Below, in pieces: positions 4,166-26,183 of a DNA stretch of 64,000 nucleotides. The stretch comes from Gemmatimonadaceae bacterium. Its GTDB lineage: Bacteria > Gemmatimonadota > Gemmatimonadetes > Gemmatimonadales > Gemmatimonadaceae. Location of the stretch: NCBI GenBank assembly GCA_040902075.1, contig JBBDXZ010000106.1, positions 4,417-68,416 of the forward strand, given 5' to 3'. The notes below the pieces were generated by a model. The model was not told the origin of the DNA. It was given only the letters and a program-made list of their open reading frames with translations, and searched no databases. A program made the position numbers and the translations under genes. Positions within the stretch are counted from its first letter, which is position 1, and each line of letters begins with the position of its first letter.

Positions 4166-5227
4166 ATGCTCAAGCAGCTTTCGTCCCGCCAGTGTCTTGG
4201 TGTCGCGCTCATCGCGCTCATCGCGCTCCTTGCTCCGACGACCATCCTTGCTCAACGCGAGACCCCTCGCGAGAAGTTCGCGCGCATCCAGTGGGTGCGG
4301 GGTCCTGCGGACGCACGACTGGGCGACGTCGCGGACGTGGTCGTGCCGGCGTTCTGCCGCGTCACCGACGAGAAGGGCACCAAGCTCTTTCTGGAAGTCA
4401 CGGAGAATCCACCCAGTGGACGTGAAGTCGGCGTCCTTCTGTGCGACGATGCGACTGACAAGGAGTCGGGCTGGTTCGTGGTCTTCACCTACAACGAGAG
4501 CGGTCTGGTGAAAGACGACGAGAAGGCGACGCTCGACCAAGCCGCGATCCTGAAGACGCTTCAGCGCGCAACGGAGGCGGGCAACGACGAGCGGCGCAGT
4601 CGCGGGTGGGAGGAGATCGAGATCGTCGGTTGGTCGCGCCCGCCGTTCTACGATCCGGAGACGCACAATCTCACCTGGTCCACTCGGCTCCGCAGCAAGT
4701 CGTCGCCAGGTGAAACGGTCAACCACTCCGTCCGGCTGCTCGGTCGCGGCGGCGTGATGCACGCCGATTTGGTGGCCGATCCGTCGCAGATGCGCCTCGC
4801 GGTCGCGGCGTTCGACTCGATTCTCACCGAGTACACCTTCGTTCCCGGGCAGAAGTACGCCGAATGGAAGGAGGGGGACAAGGTCGCCGCGTTCGGTCTC
4901 ACCGCGCTCGTCGCCGGCGGCGCCGGCGTGGCCGCCGCGAAGCTCGGCTTGTTCAGCAAGCTCTGGAAGCTCCTCCTCGGCATTCTGATCGCCGGGAAGA
5001 AGCTCATCATCGTCGCCGTGCTGGCTATCGGCGGCGGCCTGGCGAAGCTCTTTGGAAAACGCGGAGCGCAGACGGCGGAGTCGGAGGAGAAAGCGCCTCC
5101 CGCTCCCGCGAAGGCTGGGTCGACGAAGGGCGGCGGGTCCACTCGGCCGGACCTGTATCGGAAGTACATACCACCGAACGCGAACCCACCGGCGCACGCG
5201 GGCGACGGGTCCAGTAAGACTCAGTAG
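4166..5227 (+). CDS. DUF2167 membrane-anchored protein
   Basis: 353-aa ORF with a signal peptide (ALIALIALLAPTTILAQ). W..GP...LG, GW...PFYD..TH.L.W, VNHS.RLLGR.GV and DKVAAFGLTALVAGG, followed by C-terminal TM helices, match the DUF2167 pattern. Confidence 0.75.
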   Translation: MLKQLSSRQCLGVALIALIALLAPTTILAQRETPREKFARIQWVRGPADARLGDVADVVVPAFCRVTDEKGTKLFLEVTENPPSGREVGVLLCDDATDKESGWFVVFTYNESGLVKDDEKATLDQAAILKTLQRATEAGNDERRSRGWEEIEIVGWSRPPFYDPETHNLTWSTRLRSKSSPGETVNHSVRLLGRGGVMHADLVADPSQMRLAVAAFDSILTEYTFVPGQKYAEWKEGDKVAAFGLTALVAGGAGVAAAKLGLFSKLWKLLLGILIAGKKLIIVAVLAIGGGLAKLFGKRGAQTAESEEKAPPAPAKAGSTKGGGSTRPDLYRKYIPPNANPPAHAGDGSSKTQ

Positions 5228-5234
5228 GGGAACT

Positions 5235-5262
5235 GCAGATCCCTCGCTGCGCTCGGGATGAC
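5235..5262 (-). repeat. REP-like element, family 1 (inverted orientation)
   Basis: gcagatccctcgctgcgctcgggatgac is the reverse complement of the family-1 consensus. It lies in the 53-nt spacer between 4166..5227 and 5281..6153. Confidence 0.85.
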
Positions 5263-5280
5263 AGGCAGGCGAGGGGCCTG

Positions 5281-6153
5281 ATGACGGATGATATCGTCAC
5301 GACGTCATTGATACTCGCGCTCGTCGCGCTGTCCGACGGCGTCCGCCGCATTCCCGCGGGCGCGATCGTGCTTCGGAGACTGGGTCTGGGGCCATGGACG
5401 GCGCCGCGATTCGAGGAGCCCGAGTCGCGGCTCGAGCTCGTGTCTTGGTGCATTCCCCTCGCGCTGCCGCTGGTGCTCACCCGCGAATCCAACGGCACGT
5501 CAGGACCGGAGTCCGCCGAGCTCGCACTAACACGGCGACTCACGCGATTTCGTGCCCGGCTGCGCCGAGTGAGACATCACGTGTTGGCCCTGCGCATCAA
5601 CGGCCTGGCAATACTCGCGACGCTCGTCGTCGTCCTGCCGCTGCTCGCCTACCGCGGCGGCGCGTGGGGCTTTCTCGTCGGCGTCCAACTGCTGCTCACC
5701 CTGTGTCTCGTCCAGGTTGTCGCTGCCGCGATGGCGCTGCGGCGAGTCGGCATCGCCTTGCGGCCCGCGCTATTCGCGAGCGTCCCGTTCGCGTGGCCGT
5801 TCACCGCGCCGAGGGCGGCGGAAGTCGTCCAGAGTCACGCGGTCGCGGGCCTTCCGCCTCTCCTGGCCCTCCACGAGCTCGCGCCCGAGGACGAGTTTCT
5901 CCGCGTCGCGCGGCCGGCTCTCTATGACGCGATGGTCAGGAATATCGTGAGCGACGACGTAGCCGCCCTCGCCGAGCTGTGGGGCGAAGCGCGCGTCCGG
6001 TCTCTCATCGGCAAGCCATCGGCTGAAGATGCGGACCTGTACTGTCCACGCTGCGGCTCGGCGTTCAATCCCGGACGGGAGTTTTGCACCGATTGCGGCG
6101 ACGTCGCGTTGTTGCCTCGCGCCGGAGTCGTCAGTCCGATTGCAACATCGTAA
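5281..6153 (+). CDS. Hypothetical polytopic membrane protein with C-terminal zinc ribbon
   Basis: 290-aa ORF with several hydrophobic helices (ILATLVVVLPLLAY, LLLTLCLVQVVAAAMAL). The C-terminal YCPRCG...FCTDCG is a CxxC-N-CxxC ribbon. Confidence 0.55.
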   Translation: MTDDIVTTSLILALVALSDGVRRIPAGAIVLRRLGLGPWTAPRFEEPESRLELVSWCIPLALPLVLTRESNGTSGPESAELALTRRLTRFRARLRRVRHHVLALRINGLAILATLVVVLPLLAYRGGAWGFLVGVQLLLTLCLVQVVAAAMALRRVGIALRPALFASVPFAWPFTAPRAAEVVQSHAVAGLPPLLALHELAPEDEFLRVARPALYDAMVRNIVSDDVAALAELWGEARVRSLIGKPSAEDADLYCPRCGSAFNPGREFCTDCGDVALLPRAGVVSPIATS

Positions 6154-6228
6154 TCTCACGCCGAAACCATCCCGGTGCTCGATCGCGCAATGGAGGTCGT
6201 CGGCCCGCTGCCGGGCCTGGCCTAACCG

Positions 6229-8025
6229 CTAGGTCCCGGCGGCGACAATCTCGAAATCGTCCACCAGGAAAGTCGTGGTTTTGCTGCCACGCTCCCTCGA
6301 GATCAGCTTGATCCGTATCGTCCGCCCAGCATAGCTGCTCAGGTCTACCGTGCGCTGCTCGAATCCCGTCGTGACGTCCATGTTCGAGAAGCTCGCCAAC
6401 GACTCCAGCGGCTTGCCCTGGGTGTCCGCGACCAACACGAGGAGTCCATCGACCGCCGCGCTTCTGCTCTCATCGCTAGAGATGAACAGATAGAAGTTCA
6501 AGCTGATCGAGCCGGTCGTCGGCGGCAGCGCGACGTCCTGCCACAAGCTGTCGGTGTGATTGCTAGCGTGCCCGCCTAGCCACGCCTTCCATTGCCCGGT
6601 CCGCGCCGGGTTCTTCCGGTCCGACGTGATCACCCCGGCCGAAGCGGACCATCCCACCGAGCCATCCTCGAATCCGGGATTGGCGATTGGGACGCGACCG
6701 GTGGACGCCTGCACGACCCCGATGAGAGTGTCCGAATCGGACGGACCTTCATCCGGGAGGATGACGTTCATCAACATCCCGAACAGCGCGAACGCGCCGA
6801 GCACGATCAGCCCTCGACGGGACACCGTCTTGGTCATCCGCCAAAACCGCTGGAGATGTGTGATTGACGGCGGCACGACATCTCGCACGGTCGGCGGCAT
6901 CGGCGGCATCGGCGGCATCGGCGGCTTGGGATCGTTCGTGCCGCCATTCGCCTTCATCACGTCGTCCTTTCGCTTCGGCCACGACCAGCGGCGCCACGAC
7001 GGCTCGACGCCCGGCCCACCCGCTGGAGCACCCGCGCCTACGTCCGTCGCCTCCTGGAGATCCTTCCAGGCGCGTACGAACACCGCCGGTGACATGCGCT
7101 CGAGCCCCAGAAAATCGTCGAACAGCCGATGGAACTTCTTGTCAGTCTCGGACTCCGGTCCATGCTCCATCAGATACAGCGCGTTCTTGTAGAGTCCCGC
7201 GGGGATATCACCCTGGTTGTACCACTTTGCCAGTCGCTTGCGTCGGCGCTCGGCCGCCGAGCGCTCCTGCTCCTCATCGCGCCGCCGCTGCCGTTCGCGA
7301 CTCCACGCGACGATCGGCGACCCCGCCGTCTTCATTCCGGTGTATTGCGGACGTTGGCCTCGCAGCTTGGACTGAGCGTACTGGCTCAGCTCAGCCACCG
7401 TGATCTCGCCATCGTCGTTGAGATCAGCCTCGCCCGACGTGATGCCGTCGATCAGACAGCGCGTGAAGGCGCCCAGCGTCTCGGATTCCGCCGTGTGCTC
7501 CTGCGATACCTCTGCGGCGTCCGACGAGCTGAGGATGTGCAGCCCGGGCGCTCGCGCGATCTGCAGCTGGTCGCTGAGCGCGCTCCGAGTCGTCGCGAAC
7601 GCTTCGGCCGCCGCTCCGCTGAAGCAGCAGTCCAACATGAGCGTCACCTGCTCGCACGGTGACTCGCCGATCAGCTCGCGCATCTGCGGCAGGGTCAACG
7701 ACGTCGCCGCGAGCGCGTTGATCTTCGTGTCCCGGGCGCAGAGGCACAGTTGGCCGCGAAAGCTGAGCTTCCCGTGTCCCGAGTAGTAGATGAGCAGCAT
7801 GTCCGTTGGCGACGCGTCCGCCAGGAGATGCCCGACGGCCTTGCGAATGTCGGCGCTGGACGCGTTCACCAGCAGATCGTCGACCTCGAACTTGCCGAGC
7901 GCGTCGTCCTTGAGGATGGTGCTCAGACGCAATACGTCCGACGCGGGACCGCGCAGCGGAAGCAGCGCTCCACCCGAGTCGGGGAACTCGCCGTTGCCTA
8001 TCAGAAGTGCCCTGCGCCTGGTCAC
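6229..8025 (-). CDS. Caspase-family (peptidase C14) protease with one TM helix and a C-terminal extracytoplasmic jelly-roll (CBM/galactose-binding-like) domain
   Basis: 598-aa ORF. It has ALLIGNGEF, a catalytic His in LLIYYSGHGKL and a catalytic Cys in LMLDCCFSGAA. There is an EF-hand-like DLNDDGEITVAEL, a basic coiled coil and a PMPPMPPMPP linker encoded by a 9-bp repeat at about 6893-6925. A single TM helix (GLIVLGAFALFGMLMNVIL) is followed by NPGFEDGSVGW...FLVDDFEI, typical of CBM4/9-like sandwiches. Confidence 0.9.
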   Translation of the reverse strand: MTRRRALLIGNGEFPDSGGALLPLRGPASDVLRLSTILKDDALGKFEVDDLLVNASSADIRKAVGHLLADASPTDMLLIYYSGHGKLSFRGQLCLCARDTKINALAATSLTLPQMRELIGESPCEQVTLMLDCCFSGAAAEAFATTRSALSDQLQIARAPGLHILSSSDAAEVSQEHTAESETLGAFTRCLIDGITSGEADLNDDGEITVAELSQYAQSKLRGQRPQYTGMKTAGSPIVAWSRERQRRRDEEQERSAAERRRKRLAKWYNQGDIPAGLYKNALYLMEHGPESETDKKFHRLFDDFLGLERMSPAVFVRAWKDLQEATDVGAGAPAGGPGVEPSWRRWSWPKRKDDVMKANGGTNDPKPPMPPMPPMPPTVRDVVPPSITHLQRFWRMTKTVSRRGLIVLGAFALFGMLMNVILPDEGPSDSDTLIGVVQASTGRVPIANPGFEDGSVGWSASAGVITSDRKNPARTGQWKAWLGGHASNHTDSLWQDVALPPTTGSISLNFYLFISSDESRSAAVDGLLVLVADTQGKPLESLASFSNMDVTTGFEQRTVDLSSYAGRTIRIKLISRERGSKTTTFLVDDFEIVAAGT

Positions 8026-8044
8026 AACGCCTCCTAGAAAATCC

Positions 8045-8413
8045 TCATGCTGGCTTGGCGGCTTCGCCCAGGCTTTTCACGAGCATGTCCGCGTCCTTCG
8101 CTGACAACCTCTTGCCGTCGATCTTGATCTCCTTGCCGTCGGCTCCCTTGACGCTCACGGACAGCGATCGGTCGCGCTCGAGATATGTCTTGAGACACGC
8201 GATGAGTGCCGTCGCGGCGCCGCCGGTGAGAAAGGTCAACACGATCTGACCGAGCATCGCATCGCCCCGCTCACCCGGCTTTGCGGCGCTCGGCGGCGGC
8301 TCCACCCGCAGGTCGGGACTTTTGCGCAGCGACGCCGCGAACTCGCGAGCCAACTGCGCCTGCTGGCTTGCGGGCCTGTCGCTGTGCAGCTCAACCGATA
8401 TCGTCGCGCTCAT
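8045..8413 (-). CDS. EACC1-like small membrane-associated protein (effector-associated constant component-like)
   Basis: The ORF track gives 8045..8434. The Met at 8413 has a GAGG 8 nt upstream. The layout is an N-terminal beta/alpha segment (ISVELHS...QLAREFAASLRKSPDLRV), a Gly/Ala-rich hydrophobic segment (MLGQIVLTFLTGGAATALIACL), then V.V.G.DG.....G. This matches my memory of EACC1 proteins that precede caspase or trypsin effectors. It ends 19 nt before the caspase start. The assignment is an inference. Confidence 0.5.
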   Translation of the reverse strand: MSATISVELHSDRPASQQAQLAREFAASLRKSPDLRVEPPPSAAKPGERGDAMLGQIVLTFLTGGAATALIACLKTYLERDRSLSVSVKGADGKEIKIDGKRLSAKDADMLVKSLGEAAKPA

Positions 8414-8542
8414 GGTGGACCTCGGCTGCGGCACGGGAATCTCCCATCCGAAGGTTGCGTATTGCGCGGCGGTTGTCCACGGGGAATGTGCTCCCCGTAA
8501 ATCTTAGGAAGCGTTAAGGTTGCGCCGCGCTGTTGCAGTGTT

Positions 8543-9121
8543 TTGTCCGACCGCGAGCCCCACGTTACCGGTATATCGTTCCCCAACCGTTCCTTGGGTG
8601 TTCCCGACGTTCCTCGGCCTACCTCCACACCGGCGCGAGCGTCGCACCGTCCTTCACCGCGACAAGTCGTGATTCGCGAGCCTTACTCGGACCTTATCAC
8701 AGTTCTGGTATCACGGTCTCGGATTGAGCAGTCTCGACGTGTTTGCGCACCGGGGGAGGGCGGTGACCTGAGACTCTGCGCCTGCGAATCGATTCGTATC
8801 TTCGGGTCCGTCGTCGGGGGTCAGGGCGGGGAGGGTGGTCACGCGGTCGCTTACGCGCAGAACGGATGGTCGGGCGAGGCCGAAGGAGGTCCGGGCAACG
8901 CGGCGGGACATGTCTACTTCACAGGAATCGCGAATACGCCCTGCGCGGTCATGATCTCAGGGTCCGTCTCCGCCTCCATCGGCGGATGGGGCGGCGAAGT
9001 GGACGCGTACGGCGGCATGGGTGCCACGGCCGGCGGCAATGCGACGGCCATCGGCGGTCGAGCGGGTCCGGGCGGTGCGGGCCGCGTCGCGGTGGCGGCG
9101 AGCGTAACCGGGGTTCCTTAA
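8543..9121 (+). CDS. Possible glycine-rich orphan protein (weak)
   Basis: 192-aa ORF in the 785-bp gap between two minus-strand operons. The 3' two-thirds (GGQGGEGG...GGWGGEVDAYGGMGATAGGNATAIGGRAGPGGAG) has high third-position GC and the 5' third does not. There is no canonical internal start and no family recognised. Confidence 0.25.
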   Translation: MSDREPHVTGISFPNRSLGVPDVPRPTSTPARASHRPSPRQVVIREPYSDLITVLVSRSRIEQSRRVCAPGEGGDLRLCACESIRIFGSVVGGQGGEGGHAVAYAQNGWSGEAEGGPGNAAGHVYFTGIANTPCAVMISGSVSASIGGWGGEVDAYGGMGATAGGNATAIGGRAGPGGAGRVAVAASVTGVP

Positions 9122-9219
9122 CGTTTGCTCAGATGGCGTCAATGATCGACGCATTCAATCGCAGCCTTTTCCGCGTGCAACAGCCGCCCGCTTGATCTTT
9201 TACTTGCGAGTGCGAAACC

Positions 9220-10413
9220 CTATCTCCAGATCGGCGCCAACTGGGCTCCTTCACTCACGGCCTGATCCAACCGCGCCTCAGCCGCCTCCCACAACAGCGT
9301 CGTCGCATGCCGCACTCCGACTGGGAACGCCAGAATCCGCTCGGCATTGTTCGGCACGAGGTACCGCACCGCCTCGGCTAAACGCTCGAGCCGCACCTCG
9401 GGCGGAGGGTGCGCGTCGTGCGTGTACGGTCGATCGCTCTCCTCGGCCGCGCTCAACTTCGCGACGGCGCGATACACGAGCTCCACGATCGTGAAGAACA
9501 GCTCGACCCCGGTGTACACCAGCGTCAAGTCGGTCCGGTCCTTCAGGGCGTGGAAGGTCAACATCAGCCCCATCCAGTCCGCCTCGAATTCCTGCTGGTG
9601 CGACGCCACCAGCTCGTCCGCCTCCTCACTGAAGCTCATCAGCGCGCCGGAGCCATGAGCAATCTCGAGATGTCCCGCGAGGACGTGCCCGTACTCGTGC
9701 CCCATCACGAAATACTCCAGCGCTTCCCGGAATTCGGTGGCCGCCTTCGACGGCTGCCATTCCTGTATATAGGAAGGCGCCTTCACCGGTGTGCCGTCCA
9801 GCACGTACGCGAGCAGCGCTTCGGAGAATCGCTGAATGGCGCGGCCGTCGCCGCGGATGTGGCGCTCGACGTCTTCTTCTGCGGTCGAAAACGTGAGCCC
9901 TCCCTCCGCGGTCTCTTTGAACGGCAACGCGTACGCCACGGCTTTCGTGAAGAGCAGCGCAAAGACGAAGAAGTGGCTCTCGAACAGCACGAAGCGTCCA
10001 GGCACCAAGCGATGCTTGAGCGCGAGCGCGTTGACGCGCCGAGAGGGCAGGCTGCCGAACCAGATGCGGTGCGGACGCGGGAGCGACAGCTTGGCGATGA
10101 CGGCTTCGAGATCGGTCGAGATGTCGCCAAGGATTGTTTGCCAGAACGGGTTCTCGTACGGCGTGAACGGCTCCGTCCCACCAGAAAATGACTTGGTGAG
10201 CTCGTCGCGCATGTGGTCGCGATGATCCGGATGGAAGCTCTCCAGCACGCGCTCGAGGAACGCCGGGTCCAGCTTCTGGCGGAGAAGCGCGATGCTCTCG
10301 CGCTCGGCGTCACCGTATTCGCCGAGCTCGGATAACGTCTTCTCTTGAAGCTGGGTCAGAAACCGATACGCCGCCGCTTTCTCCGCCGCCGCCTCCGCCG
10401 CCTCTGAATCCAC
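9220..10413 (-). CDS. HExxH zinc metalloprotease, ImmA/IrrE(M78)-like motif arrangement
   Basis: 397-aa ORF with FVMGHEYGHVLAGH followed about 30 aa later by QQEFEADWMG (HExxH ... ExxA[D/N]). The GTG start overlaps the TAG stop of the upstream CHAT gene by 1 nt (TAGTG at 10411-10415), implying translational coupling. Confidence 0.7.
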   Translation of the reverse strand: MDSEAAEAAAEKAAAYRFLTQLQEKTLSELGEYGDAERESIALLRQKLDPAFLERVLESFHPDHRDHMRDELTKSFSGGTEPFTPYENPFWQTILGDISTDLEAVIAKLSLPRPHRIWFGSLPSRRVNALALKHRLVPGRFVLFESHFFVFALLFTKAVAYALPFKETAEGGLTFSTAEEDVERHIRGDGRAIQRFSEALLAYVLDGTPVKAPSYIQEWQPSKAATEFREALEYFVMGHEYGHVLAGHLEIAHGSGALMSFSEEADELVASHQQEFEADWMGLMLTFHALKDRTDLTLVYTGVELFFTIVELVYRAVAKLSAAEESDRPYTHDAHPPPEVRLERLAEAVRYLVPNNAERILAFPVGVRHATTLLWEAAEARLDQAVSEGAQLAPIWR

Positions 10414-13400
10414 TAACGCACCGCGGGCCTTCGCCGCGCCGTTTTGTCCGCCTTTTTGTCCGCCGTTATGTCCGCAGTCTTGTCACTCCACACGACGCGA
10501 CCGTCCGGATTGCCGTAGACGACGTAGGCGAGCCACGTTCCCTCGCGCGCGCGCATCGCGGCATCGCGCCCCGCGCGTGCCGCCGCGGCGATCGTCTTTC
10601 CCTTCCGCAGCTCCTTGTAGAACGCCTCGGTGAACGTGTGCGCCGGTTCGTCGCCCACCGCCCACAGCGTCCCGACGAACGCACCCGCGCCCTTGCCCAG
10701 GAACGCCTGCGCGAATCCACCGACGCTCGTGAGCTTCCAGTTGGGCCGCCCAACCTGGCAGGCGTTGAGCACCACCAGGGGACGATTACCCTGCGGCCCC
10801 GTGAGTGACGCATGCTGCTGCACCTGTTCGGAATCGAAGTACGAGGGCGTGTAGGTTTGTCCCGAGAGATCGCCACGCATCATGATCTTCGCCGCTGGCG
10901 ACGGAGCCTGCGACGTCTGGATCTCCGCCTCCCCATGTCCCGCGAAATGGAAGTGGTCGACACTGCCCGCGGTCGCGATCAGCTTCCGGATCGCGTTGAC
11001 TTCGGCGGCGTGCTCCTTCGCCCCCAGCTTGTCGCGTAGGAACGGGATCTCCTTCTGCGCCGCGGGGAGCTCCCAGTCCTTGACCGGATACGCCGGAATG
11101 ACGTAGTACGAGTGGCCTGCGCGGATGCGTATCTCGGGCGGAGCCGCCGGATAGTTGGCCAGCCACCGCACCAGCCCCTTCTGCGCCAGGAAGTGAGTCT
11201 CGGGTCCCAGAGACGACGCCGGCCTTCCGGGGACACGCGGCTCCTTGAGGTGGACGACCTCCCAAGGAATGAAGGGTTCCTTCGACGCCACGAGGATCGC
11301 GTCGAGCGTGTCGCGCGCGTCCCACAGCGGCCGCTGGATCTCCGGCGGCACGAGCTCGTCGAACAGCGTTCCTCCGAAAGCGCGCAGCTCCTGCTCGAAC
11401 GCTTCCACGTCCTCCTTGTTGCGCAGCCAGCGATCCTCGATCTGGCTGTACATGTTCGCGATGTAAGCGGCGCGATCCACTTTGAGGGGATCGGACACTC
11501 CGTCCACGAACTGATTGCGCCCCAGGATCAGCAGGAACTTGTAGCACAGCGACTTGCCGTGGCTCACCTCTTCGATGATGAGCATCGGGTACTCGCCGCC
11601 GCTCTGGGCAACCGGTTCCGCTTCAGCCTGCGCGGCCACCGACGCCGAGTCTTTCGCCGAGACTTTCGCCGCGATCTTGGGACGCAGAACCAACGTCGCC
11701 AGCTTCTGCACACCTTGAAGGATCAGGAGCTGGACCTCGCCCTGACCGTTGTGCGTCGGTTTCACCTGGAACATGAGATCGAATCGTCGCTGCGCCGTCG
11801 GATCGAGTACCGCGCGCGCTTCGCCCACTACGTCGATGTTCTTCGTGCCGATGAGCTGTACCACGAGCTCGCGCTCGAGGTTGACGGGCGCGTCGCCGCG
11901 CGCCTCCAGCACTCCCTCCACCGCTTCGATGACGTCGCGCGAGATCGTGGCGTGCACCTGCGTCGTCTTCTTCACCTGAACTGTCTGCGGCATGTGCGCG
12001 GAGAAATAGAACTTCGCGGTCGGTGGGCCGCCGCCGGCTGAGCCTTCACCGCCTCCCGCTCCCCCGCCGGAGCCCGCCGGCCCATCGGCAGGAGGAGGGG
12101 ACGTGCGAGGCGGAGGCGCGGACCGCGTCATTGCCTCCGCCATGCGAGGCATCGAACGCCGCCGCATCAGGTCCGCCATCACGATGTCGTCCGGATCGAT
12201 TCGCACACGTCCCGAATCACGCCTCCCCATCTTTCCGCTCGCGCGCCTCGGCGCGGGGGCTGCTGCCGGTGGAGCGCGCCTCGCTCCGCGTCGCACGCCC
12301 ATGGTCATGCTGCTCTTGATCTCCGCCACAGACTGGCCGAACGCCGGATCGATCACGGCGCGTGGAGCGATGCCGTCCAGCACGACGGTGCGAATCGCGG
12401 TGAACCCCCGGTTCCCGAAGTTCTCCCGCGGCGCGCGCGGGTTGCTCATCGGCACCGATCCCGACGCGCTGTCCTCGCCGAGCGCGAGCACGGGGTCGTC
12501 GTCCAACGCCTGCCACAGCGGTTCCTTCGGCTCGAAGCCCGCTGACGCCTGCCGCTTGGTCCCGTAGCCGAGCAGCTCTTCCGACCTGAACGCATAGACG
12601 TAGGGCTTGTAGGGCCGGTTGTCACGCATCACGACGACGTACTTCGGCAGCTCGGCGCGGATCGTGGCCAGGACGTCGCCGAATTGATCGTCTGATTGCA
12701 TCACCACGAACGACGTGTCCGCCTCGGCGGTCAGGCCCGCGGCAATCTCGATCTCGCCCGTGTGTCCCGCGTACCGGACATCCAGCTCCAGCCACTTCTC
12801 GAGTGCGCGCACGACCTCGGGTTGCGCGAAGTAGATCGTGTGATAGACGTGCGGGTTCTTTCCGAACTCCAGCTTGTCCTTCACGAATGCCCCCGCCGAG
12901 GGGTCGATGTGCGACATGGATCCGATTCCCACGAGCAGATCGTTCGGCTCGCGCATCAGCTTGTCCACGAACGAGTCCGCGAGCCACTGCTTCAAACGGG
13001 GAGAAAGCTCCGGCGCGCCGGGGCCGGTGAGATCGATGTTGAAGTCGGAGGACACGACGTAGAAGAGCGAGTCGGCGGCGCTCGGCTGTCCCTTCTGCGT
13101 CTTGTTGATCTCCGTGACGAAATCGCCGTCGGGCTCCATCGCGCTCAGACCGGGCGCACGGCGCTCGGAGATGGCGGCGGTGGCCAGATGCTTCACGAGC
13201 GTGCCCACCGTCTGCACCGTCTCCTTGATGATGACGCCGGCGCCGGGCGCGCCGAGCAGGGAGACGACGCGGCCGCCCGCGACCGCGATGTTGGTGTACA
13301 GATCGATGAGCTTCTTCCAGTTGTCGGGCTCGGCGAACTTGGTCCCGCCATTCGCGCCGCCCACGAATATCGCGCGTCGAACGCACGACCCCAGCGACGA

Positions 13401-14390
13401 ATGTGGGAGCAGATGCTCGATGAAGCTCCGCAGCACCAGCGCGCCCCGGCTGTGCGAGATCGCGTCGATGTGCGGCGCGATGCCGAAGCGGCTGCGCTCC
13501 AGCCGGGCCAACAGGTCGGTCGCGTTCTCGAGCGGGTCTTCCGAGAGCGTGGGATGATCGTATCCGACCACGACGTCGTACGTGTCCAGCGCGTCGGCGA
13601 GGAATGCCTTGCCCGCGTCGGTCGCCGTGAGCGCGCCGAACGCGCCCACCGTGCTGCTGAACGTCCCGTGCACGAACAGCAGGATCCGCGGCGCGCGGTC
13701 GGTGGGCAGGACCACCGTGCGCAGATCGTCCATCACCCGCCAGTCGCTCGGGTCGTCGGCATCCATGACGACGAACGCCTTGCGCGCGTTGCGCTCCAGG
13801 AACTTGATGCCCTGGCCGACCGCAAGGCGGGCGACGAACTTGAGCACGTAACCGCGAACCGTCTTCGCGACGAATCCCAGCGGTCCGCCGCGCCTGGTCC
13901 GCGTGCCGGCGCCAGTGCCGGTGCTGCTGCCAGTGACGCCGAGGTCGAAGGTGACGGTCTTGCGACGCCCCTCGACGAGCGGTCCGCGCCGGGTGGAGGG
14001 CGCGACTTCGACTTTCGAAGGCTCGATGCGCCACTCGTAGACGTCGTCCGTCTCGAGCAGCATGACCGCGTCTTCACCCTCGGCGAGATCGACGGTCGCC
14101 TTCCTGGGCTGTGCACGCGCGCCCCGCTTTGCAGTTGGCGGCTCGTCCGGAAGCTCGACCTCGAATGCCGCGATGAGCTCCATGTCCTGCGCGCGCAAAC
14201 TCTCGACGACCGGATCGGTCGTCCTCTCGCCTCGCGCCGTCGTGTCGCCGACGGAGATGGGGCCGCGGGGGAGGGGACGCCGTCCGCGTCGCACGCCGGC
14301 GTCCGGTGTGGGTGCAACGGAGAGGTCGCGTGCCGTAGCGCCGTCGGGGAGGTCGAGCTGAACACCGCCGACTGTGATGCTGATCGTCAT
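10413..14390 (-). CDS. Giant alpha/beta-hydrolase-CHAT fusion protease
   Basis: 1325-aa ORF. N-terminal third: ILLFVHGTFSS, the nucleophile elbow DAISHSRGALV, and later EPNDLLV and NPHVYH, which is a lipase/esterase-like Ser-Asp-His arrangement. Middle: a Pro/Gly low-complexity linker (PPPRTSPPPADGPAGSGGGAGGGEGSAGGG). C-terminus: a CHAT dyad, HFHFAGHGEAE and LVVLNACQVG, then AFVGTLWAV.D. Confidence 0.9.
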   Translation of the reverse strand: MTISITVGGVQLDLPDGATARDLSVAPTPDAGVRRGRRPLPRGPISVGDTTARGERTTDPVVESLRAQDMELIAAFEVELPDEPPTAKRGARAQPRKATVDLAEGEDAVMLLETDDVYEWRIEPSKVEVAPSTRRGPLVEGRRKTVTFDLGVTGSSTGTGAGTRTRRGGPLGFVAKTVRGYVLKFVARLAVGQGIKFLERNARKAFVVMDADDPSDWRVMDDLRTVVLPTDRAPRILLFVHGTFSSTVGAFGALTATDAGKAFLADALDTYDVVVGYDHPTLSEDPLENATDLLARLERSRFGIAPHIDAISHSRGALVLRSFIEHLLPHSSLGSCVRRAIFVGGANGGTKFAEPDNWKKLIDLYTNIAVAGGRVVSLLGAPGAGVIIKETVQTVGTLVKHLATAAISERRAPGLSAMEPDGDFVTEINKTQKGQPSAADSLFYVVSSDFNIDLTGPGAPELSPRLKQWLADSFVDKLMREPNDLLVGIGSMSHIDPSAGAFVKDKLEFGKNPHVYHTIYFAQPEVVRALEKWLELDVRYAGHTGEIEIAAGLTAEADTSFVVMQSDDQFGDVLATIRAELPKYVVVMRDNRPYKPYVYAFRSEELLGYGTKRQASAGFEPKEPLWQALDDDPVLALGEDSASGSVPMSNPRAPRENFGNRGFTAIRTVVLDGIAPRAVIDPAFGQSVAEIKSSMTMGVRRGARRAPPAAAPAPRRASGKMGRRDSGRVRIDPDDIVMADLMRRRSMPRMAEAMTRSAPPPRTSPPPADGPAGSGGGAGGGEGSAGGGPPTAKFYFSAHMPQTVQVKKTTQVHATISRDVIEAVEGVLEARGDAPVNLERELVVQLIGTKNIDVVGEARAVLDPTAQRRFDLMFQVKPTHNGQGEVQLLILQGVQKLATLVLRPKIAAKVSAKDSASVAAQAEAEPVAQSGGEYPMLIIEEVSHGKSLCYKFLLILGRNQFVDGVSDPLKVDRAAYIANMYSQIEDRWLRNKEDVEAFEQELRAFGGTLFDELVPPEIQRPLWDARDTLDAILVASKEPFIPWEVVHLKEPRVPGRPASSLGPETHFLAQKGLVRWLANYPAAPPEIRIRAGHSYYVIPAYPVKDWELPAAQKEIPFLRDKLGAKEHAAEVNAIRKLIATAGSVDHFHFAGHGEAEIQTSQAPSPAAKIMMRGDLSGQTYTPSYFDSEQVQQHASLTGPQGNRPLVVLNACQVGRPNWKLTSVGGFAQAFLGKGAGAFVGTLWAVGDEPAHTFTEAFYKELRKGKTIAAAARAGRDAAMRAREGTWLAYVVYGNPDGRVVWSDKTADITADKKADKTARRRPAVR
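10444..10486. repeat. 12-bp periodic (T/A)TGTCCG half-array embedded in the 3' end of the CHAT CDS (family 3)
   Basis: ttgtccg/ttgtccg/atgtccg/cttgtca at 12-bp spacing (unit ends at 10450, 10462, 10474, 10486). It encodes the tail DKTADITADKKADKTA. The same unit forms the intergenic arrays at 20823-20993, 22853-22927 and 26205-26223. Confidence 0.7.
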
Positions 14391-14453
14391 GTGGCCACCT
14401 GGGAGGGCGATCGAATGCCTATGCTACGGCGCGGGAAATCCGATGTCCATGTT

Positions 14454-14537
14454 GTCATCCCGAGCGCAGTCTGTCATCCCGAGCGCAGCGAGGGATCTGC
14501 AGTTGAAATGTCAGCCCGAGCGCAGCGAGGGATCTGC
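14454..14537 (+). repeat. Cluster of 2.5 tandem REP-like family-1 elements in a divergent control region
   Basis: A partial copy gtcatcccgagcgcag (14454-14469), a full copy at 14473-14500 and a full copy (gtcaGcccgag...) at 14510-14537. All lie inside the 249-bp spacer between the two divergent CHAT genes. Confidence 0.85.
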
Positions 14538-14639
14538 GCACTACTCCGCAATTCTTAACGTTTGTTAAGCCGAGTATTCGGCAGTATTGTGGGAGAGGCA
14601 TCCCACCTAGCTTGGCCTCGTACATCGTGAGGTACCAAA

Positions 14640-16982
14640 ATGCCCCTCGAGCGTGTACCCACCGTCCAGCAGATCCTGGACACCTTCCGTGCGGGCGACA
14701 GTGCGCGCCGCCGACGGCTCATCCAGGAGTGTTCGGCTACGTCCATGACCGACATGGCGCTCATGGCGGCCGGCATGGATATGACGACGATGCGCGCGCA
14801 GGCGCTCGACTTCCTCGCGATGAGCTACGCGAACTCGGGACCGCTGGACTGCGCCACCAACTTCGGCGCCGCCTGTTACCAGTTCTCGAGCGAGGAATAC
14901 GACTCCAGCGATCCGCGCGACGACGTCTACCTGCTGTGTGCGGGGCGCGGCGCGATCAGCTGGATGACGTCGCTCCAGCGGCAGGGCAGGCACACCGAGA
15001 TCCTCGCCGAGTCGGACACGGTCTTGGCCTGGCTCGGGAAAGCGGGTGACACGCAGAATGCCGACAGCCTTCGACTCAAGCAGATCGAAGCGCAGCTCGA
15101 CCTGGAGCGGTACGACGCCGCGGAGAAGCTCCTCGACGCTATCGACGAGGCCGCGCTTCCTCGGTTGGTGCAGGTGTCCTTTCGAGCGCTCCGCGAACGG
15201 CTGAAACAGCGCAAAGGCGGCGGCACCATGCTTTCCGAGGAGGCCGACGATCCCTCCGACGCTCTGAAGCGAGTGCTGGGCGTGAAGGTCGAGAAACGAG
15301 AGAAGCCGGCATCTCCCAAGGGTATCGCCACGGAGCAAACCTGGAAGGACGTGCAGGAGCTTGGCGACGCGACGCGCAGCGTCCTCGACAAACTGTTCAA
15401 GGGCGGAAGCGGGGAATTGGCCATCCGGCAGGAGATCCTGGAGGCCGCGTCGCTGTTCGCCGATCCCGTTGCCGGTCGCGACCGCGCGAGGATCGCGGAG
15501 AGCGAGGCGGTGTTGCTGCGCGCGCGGGATTGGATGGCTGAGAACAACTTTCCTGAAAACGAGAACGACGCGTGCTGGGGCTTGTATCTGTGCTACTCGC
15601 GCACGGCGCGGGAAGCGCTCGCGGCGGCCGAGTTGCAGCGCATTCGCGGGAACATCGAGATCGCTCGACTCAACATCGCGAGTCCCACGGAGCGGGCAAA
15701 CCTCTCCGCGCGCTTCCCCTACCTCTATCCCGCGCTGTGCACCATGCTGTACAAGCTCGATCGTCCCGCGGAGATGCTGGAGGCCATCGAGTCGAGCAAG
15801 GGCCGCGCGCTCGCGGACCTCGTCGCCCTGCGTGGCGGTGTGATTCTCCCCGACACGGCGTTAGCCAGCTCCGTCCGGGAGCTCCCGGCGCTCATGCAGC
15901 GGCTGGACGCGCATTACCACACATTTCTCGTGGATACCGACTGCACCTACACCGCGAGCGTCTTCAGCGACGGAAGCGTGCGGACGGGCAAAGTGAGTCT
16001 GGGGCAGGAGGCGCTCAACAAGCTCGCGAGCACGCTCGAGGACCACACGCGCCGCTCGGTTCCCGCCGTCCCACGAAAGTTCGGTGACGCGCTGGCGCCG
16101 CTGGTGAGTCATCTGGAGCCGCTCGTGCGCGCAGGGGTGATCCACAAGGGGGAGCACCTCTGCTATTCCCCGGACGACGCGATCCATGTGCTGCCGCTCC
16201 AGTGCGCCACCTTTCTCGGAGGCCCGCTCGTAAAGACCGTCTCCGTCTCGCGCGCGCAGGGCGCGCATTTTCTCGTCGAGCTCATGAAGCGGGAGCCGCT
16301 GCGACCCAAGACCTTCGTCGCCGTCGAGGTTCCCGCCGCCCAGGATCTCGAGTCCATTCCCAAGCTCCGGGCCTTTCGCGCGCCGGTGAAGTGGCTCGCT
16401 GACAACGTGAAGAAAGGTGAGACCATCGCCGGAGAGCAGGCGGATCTGGCAAGGGTGAGCGCGGCGAAGCTGTCCAACACGCTCGTGCACTTCGCGACGC
16501 ACGGTGTCTTCCCGTCGAAGGACCAGAAAGGGCAGGCCGCGAATCCATATCAGGCGTCGGGAATGCTGCTCGCGGCCAACGGCAAGCTGCCGGACCTGGA
16601 CGCCGTCGCGAGGGGCAAGGCGATCGAGCATTCGCTCACGCCAAAGTGCGCGGTGGAGCTCGAGCTCGATCTCTCACGCTCACATCTGACGCTGCAAGCC
16701 TGCGTCAGCGGTCTCGCCAGGGAAGGCATCGGCGGTGATGCGCTCGGACTGGAGTGGGCGTTTCTGCAACTGGGCGCCGCGAGCATCCTCGCGACGCACT
16801 GGGACGTTCGCGCGGACACGACCAGCGATTTCGTCGCACGATTCTATACGCGCTGGTTGACCAAAGGTGAAACGCGAGCCGTCGCGTGGAGGAGCACGAT
16901 CGAGGACTTCCTCGGCAGCAAGGGTGAGCTCGCCGAGGCGTACAACTGGTCCGCCTTTTCACTGTCCGGGGACTGGAGATAA
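14640..16982 (+). CDS. TPR-like/helical N-terminal domain + CHAT protease
   Basis: 780-aa ORF with a long helical N-terminal region. The CHAT region has SKGRALADL, the His in LVHFATHGVF and the Cys in HLTLQACVSGL, then ASILATHWDV.D. Confidence 0.9.
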   Translation: MPLERVPTVQQILDTFRAGDSARRRRLIQECSATSMTDMALMAAGMDMTTMRAQALDFLAMSYANSGPLDCATNFGAACYQFSSEEYDSSDPRDDVYLLCAGRGAISWMTSLQRQGRHTEILAESDTVLAWLGKAGDTQNADSLRLKQIEAQLDLERYDAAEKLLDAIDEAALPRLVQVSFRALRERLKQRKGGGTMLSEEADDPSDALKRVLGVKVEKREKPASPKGIATEQTWKDVQELGDATRSVLDKLFKGGSGELAIRQEILEAASLFADPVAGRDRARIAESEAVLLRARDWMAENNFPENENDACWGLYLCYSRTAREALAAAELQRIRGNIEIARLNIASPTERANLSARFPYLYPALCTMLYKLDRPAEMLEAIESSKGRALADLVALRGGVILPDTALASSVRELPALMQRLDAHYHTFLVDTDCTYTASVFSDGSVRTGKVSLGQEALNKLASTLEDHTRRSVPAVPRKFGDALAPLVSHLEPLVRAGVIHKGEHLCYSPDDAIHVLPLQCATFLGGPLVKTVSVSRAQGAHFLVELMKREPLRPKTFVAVEVPAAQDLESIPKLRAFRAPVKWLADNVKKGETIAGEQADLARVSAAKLSNTLVHFATHGVFPSKDQKGQAANPYQASGMLLAANGKLPDLDAVARGKAIEHSLTPKCAVELELDLSRSHLTLQACVSGLAREGIGGDALGLEWAFLQLGAASILATHWDVRADTTSDFVARFYTRWLTKGETRAVAWRSTIEDFLGSKGELAEAYNWSAFSLSGDWR

Positions 16983-17010
16983 AACCGCACTCTTGCGAGG
17001 AGACGTCACA

Positions 17011-17769
17011 ATGCTGGTACAGCTCGTCGAGAAGACCTGCGCCGCGATCGACGGTTTGAACATGGAAGATGCATTGCCCGGGCTGCAGCTCCAGCTCCGG
17101 CAGAGTGCTCCTGATGCAATCGCAAACCTCAGGACGGAAGGCGTGAAGCACGGAGGCAACCCGTCCGAGAACGACGCCGTCATGGGAGCGGCATTGCTGG
17201 CGCTCGTGTACGTCAAGGGCCTTCCGGCTCTTGCACGACTCATGGTGCAGAAGATGAAGGATCGGCGCATCGACGCTGCCCGGCGCTGCGCCGTCGCCGG
17301 CGTACTCGCTTATTTCGTTCAGCCGCACGACCTGATTCCCGACAATGCGCCGGGCGGTTACGGTTGGCTCGATGACGCGATTCTTCTGCGTGCCGGCCTG
17401 ATCGAGTACCTGAACCTGCTACCGCCAGGACAAACCAAGGTCGAGTTCGAGCAGAAAGTCGTGGGAATCCTCGTGGGCCTGACCCCGACTCACGTACGGC
17501 CTTCGCTCCAGCAGGCTATCGGCGCGATGTCGCTCGCCGTTCAGGTAATGGGCCTCATGGAGGGCGAGATCGCGGAGTTCGTCCTTGCGCAAGTGATAGC
17601 CAATCCGCTCAATACAGATCCGCCGGTCGTTCCGCCTGGCTTCAGACCTCACAGTGTTCCGAGTTATGATCGCGGACACTGGTCCGCGGGCATGTACTTC
17701 GAGGGAAACAGCGTGGTCATTCCCGGAGGACCATCACTGATCGACGGCCAGCTTTTCATTCCGACCTAA
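17011..17769 (+). CDS. DUF1232-like protein, paralogue B
   Basis: The ORF track gives 16867..17769, but the ATG at 17011 (MLVQLVEKTC...) aligns with the start of paralogue A and avoids overlapping the CHAT gene. It has the same DUF1232 core (YFVQPHDLIPDNAPGGYGWLDDAILLRAGL). It starts 28 nt after the CHAT stop, and its stop overlaps the convergent NlpC/P60 stop by 4 nt. Confidence 0.75.
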   Translation: MLVQLVEKTCAAIDGLNMEDALPGLQLQLRQSAPDAIANLRTEGVKHGGNPSENDAVMGAALLALVYVKGLPALARLMVQKMKDRRIDAARRCAVAGVLAYFVQPHDLIPDNAPGGYGWLDDAILLRAGLIEYLNLLPPGQTKVEFEQKVVGILVGLTPTHVRPSLQQAIGAMSLAVQVMGLMEGEIAEFVLAQVIANPLNTDPPVVPPGFRPHSVPSYDRGHWSAGMYFEGNSVVIPGGPSLIDGQLFIPT

Positions 17770-18473
17770 CCGTACCACTTCACCTTGAGCGCCTTGGCCG
17801 TTCCGCGACCCACCTCGCCATCCACGAGCAGGCCCTTCGACATCTGAAACGCCTGCACGGCCGCGGCGGTCTGCGGACCATAAACGCCGTCGATCGGGCC
17901 CGCGTGGAACCCGATCTTCTTGAGCCGACGCTGAACGTCCTTCACCAGCTCGCCCCTCATGAGAGGCGTCTTCACGCGCAGCACGAGCGCCGGACGCTTC
18001 GGCGGCTTCGGCGCGTCCTCCACCTTCACCGTGATCCCGGGGACGAGCACGCCGGTGTGCCAGCGACGCCCCTCGGATCTGCTCTCGATCACGCCCTTCT
18101 TCGAGGAATGTGCTTCGACGGTCTTTCCATTTCCCATGGAAATCACGACGTGGCCCACCGCGCCCCCCTCGGGCGCCCGCAGGAGAAACGCACCCGGCGT
18201 CGCGCTGGCCTGACCGATCGAGATCAGTTTCCCAAGCTTCCGCGCGTCCTCCATCCAGAAGCCGGAGTACGCGTCCGCGATATCCGGACCCTGCGCCCGC
18301 GGCCGGCAGCCAAACAGCTTGCCCGTCGCCTGGAACACGCACCACGACGCGAACTCGGCGCAGTCCCACGGACCCGCCCACTCGGGATTGCCCTTTGGCA
18401 CTTTGGCGCCGAGGACGTACTGCTCGCCCACGTGGGCGCGGGCGATGCGAAGAAGCGCCGCGGCAGTCGCCAT
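17766..18473 (-). CDS. NlpC/P60-family peptidase + peptidoglycan-binding (PG_binding_1) domain, no signal peptide
   Basis: 235-aa ORF. GPWDCAEFASWC carries the nucleophile Cys and GHVVISMG...VEAHS the His. The C-terminal L..G..G.DV..LQ..L...G...G.IDG.YG..T..AV..FQ pattern is the PGB domain. No N-terminal hydrophobic signal is visible. Confidence 0.8.
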   Translation of the reverse strand: MATAAALLRIARAHVGEQYVLGAKVPKGNPEWAGPWDCAEFASWCVFQATGKLFGCRPRAQGPDIADAYSGFWMEDARKLGKLISIGQASATPGAFLLRAPEGGAVGHVVISMGNGKTVEAHSSKKGVIESRSEGRRWHTGVLVPGITVKVEDAPKPPKRPALVLRVKTPLMRGELVKDVQRRLKKIGFHAGPIDGVYGPQTAAAVQAFQMSKGLLVDGEVGRGTAKALKVKWYG

Positions 18474-18475
18474 GC

Positions 18476-18799
18476 TTATAGTAGTCCTCCGATCCCCTTC
18501 AACGCCGCGGTCTCGATGACATCGAAGAACGCGTTGGCCGCGTCCTGCGCCGCCTTCTTGCCGATCGCCTGAACCGCGAGCAGCTCCGCCTTGAGCACGC
18601 GCTGCTCGTCCTCGAGCTCGGCCTCCATCGTCGCCTGATCGATCTTTCCGTCGGTGAATGCCGCGAGCAGGGAAGCGAGCGACTTCTTGTGCGCGGCAAC
18701 GATGTCCTTCATGTACTCGTGCGCGTCGCCGCCGGCCGACTTGAGCTTGCCAGTCGCGGCCTTCACCGCGTCGTTCCAGACGTCTTTCCAGTCCGCCAT
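18476..18799 (-). CDS. Small Ala/Lys-rich helical hypothetical protein
   Basis: 107-aa ORF ending 2 nt before the NlpC/P60 start. It is predicted all-helical by composition. No TM helix and no family recognised. Confidence 0.5.
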   Translation of the reverse strand: MADWKDVWNDAVKAATGKLKSAGGDAHEYMKDIVAAHKKSLASLLAAFTDGKIDQATMEAELEDEQRVLKAELLAVQAIGKKAAQDAANAFFDVIETAALKGIGGLL

Positions 18800-18800
18800 G

Positions 18801-18843
18801 GGTCCTCGGGGTCCTCGGGGTCCTCGGGGTCCTCGGGGTCCTC
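18801..18843. repeat. 9-bp tandem repeat GGTCCTCGG x4.8 filling an entire intergenic spacer
   Basis: Units at 18801, 18810, 18819 and 18828, plus a partial unit at 18837. On the coding (-) strand the unit is CCGAGGACC, and each copy carries a GAGGA Shine-Dalgarno-like core. It is bounded by the stop at 18845-18847 and the ATG at 18799. Confidence 0.9.
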
Positions 18844-18844
18844 G

Positions 18845-19309
18845 TCAGTACCGGTCGTCGCTGTCGGCTTTCGCGCGCTCGGCCTTCACCGCCGCGGTGA
18901 ACAGGCGCCGCATGACATCGCGGTGGCGATCGGTGAGCGCCGGATTGAATCCGTTGTCCTTGCGATGATCGGCGCGGTAGCGCGTGAACACCGTGTCGAT
19001 CTGCGCGACGATCCCACGCGACTCCGCGTTGAGCGGCCGCATGTCCTCGCGCAGCACCTGCACCCGGATCAATTCATGAATTTCGGCGTACCGGTCCGCG
19101 AATCGCGAGTAGACGCGCGCGCCCGGCTCCGTCGCATCCGTCATCGCGTCGAAGAGGCTCTCGATCTTGCCGTACGTCCGAAGGAGGCCCTCTTCGCTCT
19201 CGCGATTGTAGCTGTCGATGAGCCTGACCTTGCAGGCGCCCAAAGCGAGCGCAGTCGCGAAGAGCGCCGCGGCGAAACGCAGTCGCCGAGTCGAGGGACG
19301 TATTGTCAT
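18845..19309 (-). CDS. Hypothetical helical lipoprotein
   Basis: The ORF track gives 18845..19405. The internal Met at 19309 gives MTIRPSTRRLRFAAALFATALALGAC, a signal peptide plus lipobox. No family recognised. Confidence 0.55.
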   Translation of the reverse strand: MTIRPSTRRLRFAAALFATALALGACKVRLIDSYNRESEEGLLRTYGKIESLFDAMTDATEPGARVYSRFADRYAEIHELIRVQVLREDMRPLNAESRGIVAQIDTVFTRYRADHRKDNGFNPALTDRHRDVMRRLFTAAVKAERAKADSDDRY

Positions 19310-19444
19310 GGTGAGACGACAATGGGGCGCAATCGAGCGGCCGTAAAGGGGGCGCCTGTTTCTTAAGCTTCGCTCATGCGGCGGCTCTTCATCCTGCTCG
19401 GACAACCGTTGCTAAGATGACGTCCATGGTTTACTGTCGCGCTC

Positions 19445-19756
19445 ATGTACATGGTGCTCGCTTGGACCGTCGCCGCGGGACAGGACTCCGCTCAGGTGAC
19501 AGCGGACATCCAGAACGCGATCGCGGCGCGTGAGTTCATGAACCCCTTCGGCGTGTTCGAGAACCACATCATCGCCAACGTCGACCGCAACTACACCGCG
19601 ACGGATGAGCTGGCGGCGTTGGCTCAAAGTCTGAACGACACGGCGGCGGGCCGCTTTACCTTCGCCATGTACCTCGTGCCAAAAGGCAACTTCCCCTGGT
19701 TCTCGACCGACTTGGACCCGGAATCGGACACGTTCGACGCCATCGCGAGCTACTGA
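19445..19756 (+). CDS. Small hypothetical protein
   Basis: 103-aa ORF ending 2 nt before the next gene, so it is probably in the same operon. No family recognised. Confidence 0.4.
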   Translation: MYMVLAWTVAAGQDSAQVTADIQNAIAAREFMNPFGVFENHIIANVDRNYTATDELAALAQSLNDTAAGRFTFAMYLVPKGNFPWFSTDLDPESDTFDAIASY

Positions 19757-19758
19757 CG

Positions 19759-23015: not shown

Positions 23016-26183
<3,168 letters not shown>

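Follow-up and report, generated by a model that had tools for sequence, protein, structure and literature searches.

Does a caspase-like protease that carries its own hydrolase depend on the metalloprotease encoded directly behind it? This question is raised by a stretch of 64,000 nucleotides (nt) from a Gemmatimonadaceae bacterium (GenBank assembly GCA_040902075.1, contig JBBDXZ010000106.1, positions 4,417 to 68,416 of the forward strand; the whole stretch is called the window), in which the gene of a 1325-amino-acid (aa) protein joining an alpha/beta-hydrolase (ABH) to a CHAT protease overlaps the gene of a 397-aa protein with an HExxH motif. A sequence-only reading had taken the smaller protein for a metalloprotease of the ImmA/IrrE (M78) type, had proposed that both proteins make up a two-tier protease switch and had not recognised this as a described system. 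Our analysis points to a different arrangement. We hold, with slightly better than even confidence, that the 1325-aa protein (ABH-CHAT) is a single-chain hydrolase-CHAT death effector of the conflict or defence type which is unlocked by cleavage, and that its neighbour, which is M48-like, reflects a lineage-specific recombination of modules. The gene pair is arranged as follows, in positions of the window.

10413-14390, minus strand: ABH-CHAT gene, 1325 aa, ATG start (open reading frame (ORF) call, translation and Pfam)
9220-10413, minus strand: gene of a soluble M48-type zinc metalloprotease, 397 aa, GTG start (ORF call and Pfam M48)
10413-10413, minus strand: the one base common to the TAG stop of ABH-CHAT and the GTG start of the M48-like gene (sequence)

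Judged by its Pfam architecture, DUF7362-DUF7379-TCAD7-DUF7363-CHAT, the larger protein is a full-length member of a widespread family. From the N-terminus to the C-terminus the following parts can be distinguished.

13920-14258, minus strand: DUF7362, an N-terminal beta-rich domain, aa 45-157 (Pfam 27.6 bits, equal to the gathering threshold; beta strands across residues 2-149 in the AlphaFold2 (AF2) model)
12828-13682, minus strand: catalytic region of the alpha/beta-hydrolase, aa 237-521 (Pfam DUF7379, aa 237-429, 216 bits; HG at 241-242, SHSRG with S314, D484, H517)
12447-12719, minus strand: TCAD7-like region, aa 558-648 (Pfam 17.6 bits, below the threshold of 24 here; TCAD7 is called in most homologues)
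12018-12122, minus strand: Gly/Pro-rich low-complexity hinge, about aa 757-791 (translation; not conserved across the family)
11685-11999, minus strand: DUF7363 domain, aa 798-902 (Pfam 67.4 bits)
10542-11234, minus strand: CHAT caspase-fold protease domain, aa 1053-1283, with H1152 and C1211 (Pfam PF12770, 77.6 bits against a gathering threshold of 24)

At least 223 homologues (database clusters) have the same architecture. The family is found in Gemmatimonadota, Myxococcota, Acidobacteriota, Chloroflexota, Nitrospirota, Actinomycetota and other phyla, and some of its members are labelled by the Joint Genome Institute (JGI) as 'CHAT domain/Ternary complex associated domain 7'. All conservation counts for this protein refer to the 120 relatives listed among these homologues; they are 1015-1375 aa long and 35-61% identical, and the domain string is the same in nearly all of them. 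In every family member the hydrolase and the CHAT domain are joined in one ORF.

The motifs that had been quoted for both proteins by the sequence-only reading are all present in their places, which in the larger protein are FVHGT at 239-243, SHSRG at 312-316, the later Asp (D484) and His (H517) and the Gly/Pro hinge, and in the smaller one HEYGH and EFEAD; the CHAT His and Cys are H1152 (within GHG) and C1211. The fusion of an alpha/beta-hydrolase with a CHAT protease is likewise borne out, both by the Pfam scores given above and by the conservation of the two active sites. In detail, H241-G242 are kept in 120/120 relatives, S314 in 118/120, D484 in 120/120 and H517 in 120/120, so that the hydrolase triad that had been called from the one sequence is conserved in the homologues; its Ser-Asp-His order is that of the alpha/beta-hydrolases. 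H1152 and C1211 of the CHAT domain are each found in 120/120. Since the triad and the CHAT His/Cys are essentially invariant, selection must be keeping both enzymes active. By their motifs, both catalytic centres of the window protein are intact.

The AF2 model of residues 1-560 is of moderate quality, with a predicted local distance difference test (pLDDT) value of 61 and a well predicted core at residues 205-345. A Foldseek comparison of this model with the PDB returned lipases, esterases, thioesterases and the Legionella phospholipase PlaB with probabilities of up to 1.0 and weak E-values (3e-3 to 3e-2), and a PDB sequence search with the ABH profile gave no match.

The statement that this is not a described system has to be revised. 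The architecture is catalogued in Pfam, with the clusters counted above, and the pairing of a hydrolase with a caspase appears in PMC7159879 and has been tested experimentally in PMC12642450. In the literature library searched, no paper mentioned DUF7379, DUF7362 or DUF7363, the supplement of PMC7159879 contains no TCAD entries, and PADLOC and NCBIfam gave no useful matches.

What the protein might do is suggested by those published pairs. In VMAP-type conflict systems the caspase-superfamily domain always occurs with a neighbouring alpha/beta-hydrolase gene (Kaur et al. 2020, PMC7159879), and in Lysobacter capsici the protease LcCaspase cuts LcHydrolase at two conserved Arg|Gly sites, the cleaved form of which kills the cell (Evans et al. 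2025 preprint, PMC12642450). Two conserved Arg-Gly dipeptides are also found in the ABH-CHAT protein.

13983-13988, minus strand: Arg135-Gly136, candidate cleavage site 1 (R in 98/120 and G in 86/120 relatives; variable loop; AF2 confidence low)
13887-13892, minus strand: Arg167-Gly168, candidate cleavage site 2 (R in 110/120 and G in 104/120 relatives; low-complexity linker, pLDDT below 50)

Both dipeptides lie just upstream of the hydrolase core, the alignment columns flanking them are variable, and the loops that hold them are, according to the model, presumably flexible. It is because of the published hydrolase-caspase pairs and of these two conserved Arg-Gly dipeptides in variable loops that we read the 1325-aa protein as a fused hydrolase-caspase module which stays latent until CHAT cleavage. 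It would thus be a latent death effector of the lipase or esterase type, with a predicted cleavage and a predicted lipid target. Upon a trigger, a CHAT protease would cut at R135|G136 and R167|G168; the cutter could be the protein's own CHAT domain, acting in cis or between copies, or a second CHAT protein that is encoded divergently at 14640-16982. The cut would remove the segment consisting of DUF7362 and the linker and thereby unlock the hydrolase, which might then damage the cell in line with the logic of abortive infection. A third short conserved motif, RRxMP at aa 744-748, is found in the variable linker before the Gly/Pro hinge (R745 in 89/120 and P748 in 102/120); it may serve as a further site of processing or docking.

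The second CHAT protein is of interest as a possible cutter, and its occurrence was followed in the 86 ABH-CHAT neighbourhoods examined.

14640-16982, plus strand: second CHAT protein, 780 aa, divergent to ABH-CHAT (Pfam CHAT 102.7 bits)

The commonest neighbour of ABH-CHAT is indeed a second CHAT protein related to this one, which is present in 11 other loci. At the locus of the closest ABH-CHAT orthologue (L004), a 62%-identical copy of the 780-aa protein occupies the same divergent position. Among the partners in the 11 other loci, one is a CHAT-nSTAND1-WD40 protein and one a TPR-CHAT protein, suggesting a sensor or initiator protease. In the locus of a close relative, the gene after ABH-CHAT (L165:7732-11232) encodes a CHAT-nSTAND1-beta-propeller protein of 1166 aa, which from its domains is a plausible sensor-protease for the family. 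Further neighbours of ABH-CHAT are varied and include peptidases S8 with trypsin, and C25.

Several points weigh against a death effector that is unlocked by cleavage. The Arg-Gly dipeptides could be kept for a reason other than cleavage. Both of them precede the whole hydrolase core, whereas the N-terminal fragment of LcHydrolase belongs to the fold. The AF2 model of residues 1-560 that underlies the structural comparison is only moderate (pLDDT 61), and its Foldseek E-values are weak. No sensor domain was recognised in the 780-aa CHAT protein of the window, and of about 86 loci only 12 have a second CHAT protein, although the contigs are in many cases short. Finally, the overlap of 1 nt speaks for a role of the M48-like gene beyond that of a bystander in this locus. 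This last point leads to the neighbour itself.

From its profile matches, the 397-aa protein is a divergent, soluble M48-like zinc protease and not a member of M78/ImmA/IrrE. It matches Pfam Peptidase_M48 with 25.3 bits, the gathering threshold being 20.3, and its motifs are placed as follows.

9685-9699, minus strand: HEYGH motif, aa 239-243 (translation)
9577-9591, minus strand: EFEAD motif, aa 275-279 (translation)
9403-9414, minus strand: AHPP motif (translation)

The combination HEYGH...EFEAD, in which the sequence-only reading had seen the spacing of ImmA/IrrE, is in fact the M48 signature HExxH...ExxAD...HPPxxxR, the residues H239, E240, H243, E275, A278, D279, H335, P336 and R341 being invariant in 42 M48-like sequences. 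M48 Pfam matches were obtained for 40/42 of the relatives (best E-value 4.5e-8), and weak M78 matches for 3/42 (best E-value 0.0039). The M78 profile (PF06114) gave no match with the 397-aa protein itself at E-values of up to 1, and a helix-turn-helix (HTH) repressor gene was not found among the neighbouring ORFs 4166-20811 scanned with Pfam. The ImmA/IrrE assignment was rejected, since there is no M78 profile match and the family matches M48.

An exhaustive HMMER search detected 1131 representative relatives of the 397-aa protein, most of them about 390 aa long; a word-indexed homologue search had returned the protein itself alone. PDB sequence matches were restricted to BepA, aligned at the catalytic motifs. 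The AF2 model is confident (mean pLDDT 90) and contains a single disordered loop at residues 256-262 (pLDDT below 50), and the Foldseek comparison of this model with the PDB yielded nothing better than E = 0.14.

How closely are the two genes tied together? The larger ORF does end, as had been noted, with a TAG that overlaps the GTG of the smaller one by a single base. The junction is cgtTAGTGgat, in which the G at 10413 ends TAG and opens GTG. No other start codon precedes the N-terminal block that is conserved in the M48-like family, so that the overlap does not arise from the way the start was chosen. Both ORFs exhibit a strong coding signature, with a GC content at third codon positions (GC3) of 0.85 and 0.82 versus 0.48 and 0.42 at second positions (GC2) in a window of 65% GC, and each of the two proteins has a 100% identical counterpart in a Gemmatimonadaceae metagenome-assembled genome at NCBI. 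As the one-base overlap leaves no room for a separate promoter, the genes should be co-transcribed, and they are probably co-translated as well, by coupled translation.

However tight in this genome, the pair is not conserved elsewhere. For the downstream test, 47 ABH-CHAT loci had a complete 3' end followed by 1200 nt or more of sequence, which together with two close relatives makes 49 usable loci; an M48-like gene beside ABH-CHAT was found in none of them (0/49). In the opposite direction, none of the 80 M48-like loci contained a match to the ABH-CHAT profile (0/80), and adjoining CHAT genes were absent from the four closest M48-like relatives. The orthologue locus L004 is of special interest here, since its ABH-CHAT protein is 61% identical and the divergent CHAT partner is kept, but the M48-like gene is missing. 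As the pair is absent from the loci sampled from both sides, it is, within this sampling, confined to the present genome; likewise, ABH-CHAT loci without the M48-like gene mean that the ABH-CHAT family works without it. A conserved M48-like/ABH-CHAT pair was consequently rejected. The linkage of the HExxH gene with ABH-CHAT homologues in other genomes, on which the sequence-only reading had made its idea depend, was thus largely refuted, and the two-tier protease switch is left as a one-genome arrangement, possible but without comparative support. We suggest that the M48-like gene behind ABH-CHAT represents a lineage-specific recombination of modules and not a conserved system, in which case any action of it on ABH-CHAT would be a local add-on layer.

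A different picture emerges from the genomic habit of the M48-like family itself, for which 80 genomic loci (L005-L084) and the four closest relatives were considered. A small co-directional ORF abuts the start of the M48-like gene in at least 37/79 loci. In 25/80 loci, mostly from Actinomycetota, the gene directly upstream encodes a small protein of about 160-180 aa without a Pfam match, which we call A4-type and whose gene usually shares 4 nt with the M48-like gene; behind a single hydrophobic helix in its middle, the protein carries an invariant GGQxIDLR motif (e.g. L008:7291-7788, L040:7492-7977, L064:7447-7989) and may, from these features, be a new protease-activated membrane effector. 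That it might be a divergent EACC1 or Pepco was considered and rejected, given hhalign probabilities of about 0.4% and no Pfam matches. Pepco (PF24393) itself is found directly upstream in 5/80 loci (L005:7633-7932, L012:7368-7691, L018:5701-6030, L078:7633-7983, L007:197-946); of these, L012 is from Ruminiclostridium hungatei and L007 from Pseudomonas guariconensis. Upstream of the closest M48-like relatives there is DUF1353 beside a restriction-modification pair, and there are unknown proteins of 115, 158 and 298 aa. The closest relative of all (L167:1392-2863 and 5273-7293; 37% identity) follows the DUF1353 gene, and a BglII-type restriction endonuclease and an MT-A70 methylase are encoded nearby; by its predicted genes, this is a defence-island context. 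The wider neighbours of the M48-like genes are heterogeneous and contain no recurrent protease. In the Nocardia loci L053, L056-L058 and L073, the ORF call yields an M48-like frame of about 803 aa, about twice the usual length, with an A4-type gene directly in front of it.

This pattern suggests a mobile two-gene cassette, in which a constant protease would be combined with a variable, translationally coupled upstream partner (Pepco, the one-helix protein, DUF1353 or others). Pepco is a non-enzymatic pore-former that needs proteolytic activation (PMC12642450), and for this reason the M48-like enzyme probably acts on the product of the upstream gene. In the window, including the 785-nt gap that follows the pair, no Pepco-like or A4-like ORF was found, and it is ABH-CHAT that fills the upstream slot. 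One could go further and regard the soluble M48-like proteases as an undescribed class of metalloprotease-gated cassettes with an interchangeable effector, the slot being filled here by ABH-CHAT. The outcome would be a cascade of three tiers, with a metalloprotease at the top, then a caspase-like protease and finally a lipase; we consider this decidedly unlikely.

The same evidence bears on the original idea in its local form, namely that the metalloprotease licenses ABH-CHAT by cleavage and so activates the hydrolase, as a lineage-specific cascade from metalloprotease to caspase-like protease to hydrolase. Protease cascades are not without precedent in defence, as Steens et al. reportedly described in 2024 a proteolytic cascade from SAVED-CHAT to PCaspase in type III-B CRISPR. 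The stop/start overlap of 1 nt speaks for such licensing, as do the complete set of M48 catalytic residues in the window copy and the habitual coupling of M48-like genes to an upstream gene, which sometimes is Pepco with its need for proteolytic activation (PMC12642450). Nevertheless, the pair is found in neither set of loci and is missing at the L004 orthologue locus, and the 397-aa protein has no ImmA/IrrE features, so that we regard a licensing cascade as unlikely.

The direction of action could also be the reverse, the M48-like protein being a substrate or effector of the CHAT protease, that is, a latent metalloprotease which is activated or destroyed by cleavage, for instance in the loop at 250-270. 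CHAT and caspase-like defence proteases typically act on the product of a neighbouring gene (PMC12642450), and the disordered loop of the model lies between the HExxH and ExxAD helices. This loop, however, has no conserved Arg-Gly, the M48-like family is never beside CHAT or caspase genes in the other sampled loci, and the partners with which it is regularly found are small proteins other than proteases, in keeping with an M48-like protein that is the acting enzyme. Such a reversal appears very improbable to us.

On its far side, the pair is followed by a second unit of the defence type, from which it is separated by a non-coding spacer.

8435-9219, no strand: non-coding spacer, 785 nt, between the ABH-CHAT/M48 unit and the EACC1-caspase unit (GC flat across codon positions in all six frames)
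8045-8434, minus strand: EACC1 protein, 129 aa (Pfam EACC1 40.9 bits)
6229-8025, minus strand: Peptidase_C14 caspase, 598 aa (Pfam C14 66.8 bits; start 19 nt past the EACC1 stop; C-terminal 370 aa without assignment)

Separated by 785 nt from the M48-like gene upstream, EACC1 and, 19 nt behind it in the same orientation, Peptidase_C14 make up the canonical EACC1-caspase two-gene system of Kaur 2020 (PMC7159879), in which EACC1 forms pores after cleavage (Evans 2025, PMC12642450). According to its predicted genes, the locus is a small island in which three proteases with a caspase fold and one of the M48-like type occur together with two candidate death effectors. For a compact genome, the spacer between these two units of the defence type is of unusual length; it contained no Rfam family, no promoter or terminator consensus and only trivial repeats. 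Other genes of the window encode an NlpC/P60 and peptidoglycan-binding hydrolase (17766-18473, minus strand), a Uma2-family endonuclease (289-861, minus strand) and two Ser/Thr kinase-TPR proteins (23016-26183 and 30738-32576, both plus strand).

Such surroundings bring up the possibility that there is no functional link at all. The M48-like gene would then code for an independent protease, or be the remnant of a cassette minus its small partner, and would adjoin ABH-CHAT only by gene packing. The island is a mosaic of unrelated modules (EACC1-caspase, second CHAT, NlpC/P60), the pair is unique among about 130 sampled loci, and a Pepco-like or A4-like partner ORF is absent from the window, all of which would agree with a chance neighbourhood. 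On the other hand, the one-base overlap without room for a promoter implies co-transcription and probably coupled translation, an uncoupled orphan would be unusual given the consistent coupling of the family to an upstream gene, and the M48-like gene, which shows a strong coding signature and keeps every catalytic residue, is intact. We find the absence of any link rather unlikely, and prefer the reading of a cleavage-activated ABH-CHAT effector beside a locally recombined M48-like module.

Death effectors gated by proteases are increasingly seen as one of the main principles of bacterial immunity, and they have parallels in caspases and gasdermins. Against this background, ABH-CHAT would offer a compact single-gene test case for the hydrolase-zymogen mechanism, as its two predicted Arg|Gly cut sites, one predicted nucleophile and one predicted protease cysteine are open to point mutation. 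On account of the M48-like family and its variable upstream partner, metalloproteases may have to be added to the serine and cysteine proteases of protease-effector modules. Two testable predictions result, namely Arg-Gly cleavage in a widespread hydrolase-CHAT family and a possible metalloprotease class of protease-effector cassettes, while the M48-like/ABH-CHAT 'two-tier switch' as an arrangement of one genome should not be treated as a system.

Compared with known systems, the locus resembles the SAVED-CHAT/PCaspase cascade reported by Steens et al. in having more than one caspase-fold protease, suggesting sequential proteolytic activation; it differs in that there is no CRISPR or cyclic-oligonucleotide sensor here and in that the executioner carries its own hydrolase. 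With ImmA/IrrE (M78), the 397-aa protein has in common the HExxH motif with a downstream Glu and the character of a small cytoplasmic metalloprotease, but neither an M78 match nor an HTH repressor gene among the scanned neighbouring ORFs. The M48 proteases HtpX, Ste24, BepA and Oma1 share with it the HExxH motif, the third-ligand Glu in ExxAD and the downstream HPPxxxR; unlike them, it is soluble, without membrane segments or a TPR domain, and it has a long helical N-terminal half and the habit of a two-gene cassette.

The Pepco/Trypco and EACC1-caspase modules are alike in their order, a small upstream effector gene being followed by a protease gene that often overlaps it. The described partners of Pepco and EACC1 are serine or cysteine proteases, whereas the M48-like partner is a metalloprotease, and in the window the upstream slot is held by a 1325-aa enzyme instead of a small pore-former. 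The ternary systems of Kaur 2020 are represented only by the weak TCAD7 match (17.6 bits, threshold 24), which is the sole pointer to a vWA-MoxR-VMAP system; in contrast to them, no vWA, MoxR, VMAP or STAND genes were found among the 30 window ORFs scanned with Pfam.

The closest resemblance is to the LcHydrolase/LcCaspase modules, in which a lipase-like alpha/beta-hydrolase is likewise obligately paired with a caspase-fold cysteine protease in a conflict or defence context. A further likeness to LcHydrolase (PMC12642450) is a pair of conserved Arg-Gly dipeptides spaced by about 30-45 residues in the N-terminal part of the hydrolase portion. ABH-CHAT differs in being one chain of 1325 aa with the additional domains DUF7362, TCAD7 and DUF7363 and with Arg-Gly sites that come before the whole core. 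Set beside LcHydrolase as it has been described, ABH-CHAT may best be regarded as a fused form of the published pairing of an alpha/beta-hydrolase with a caspase.

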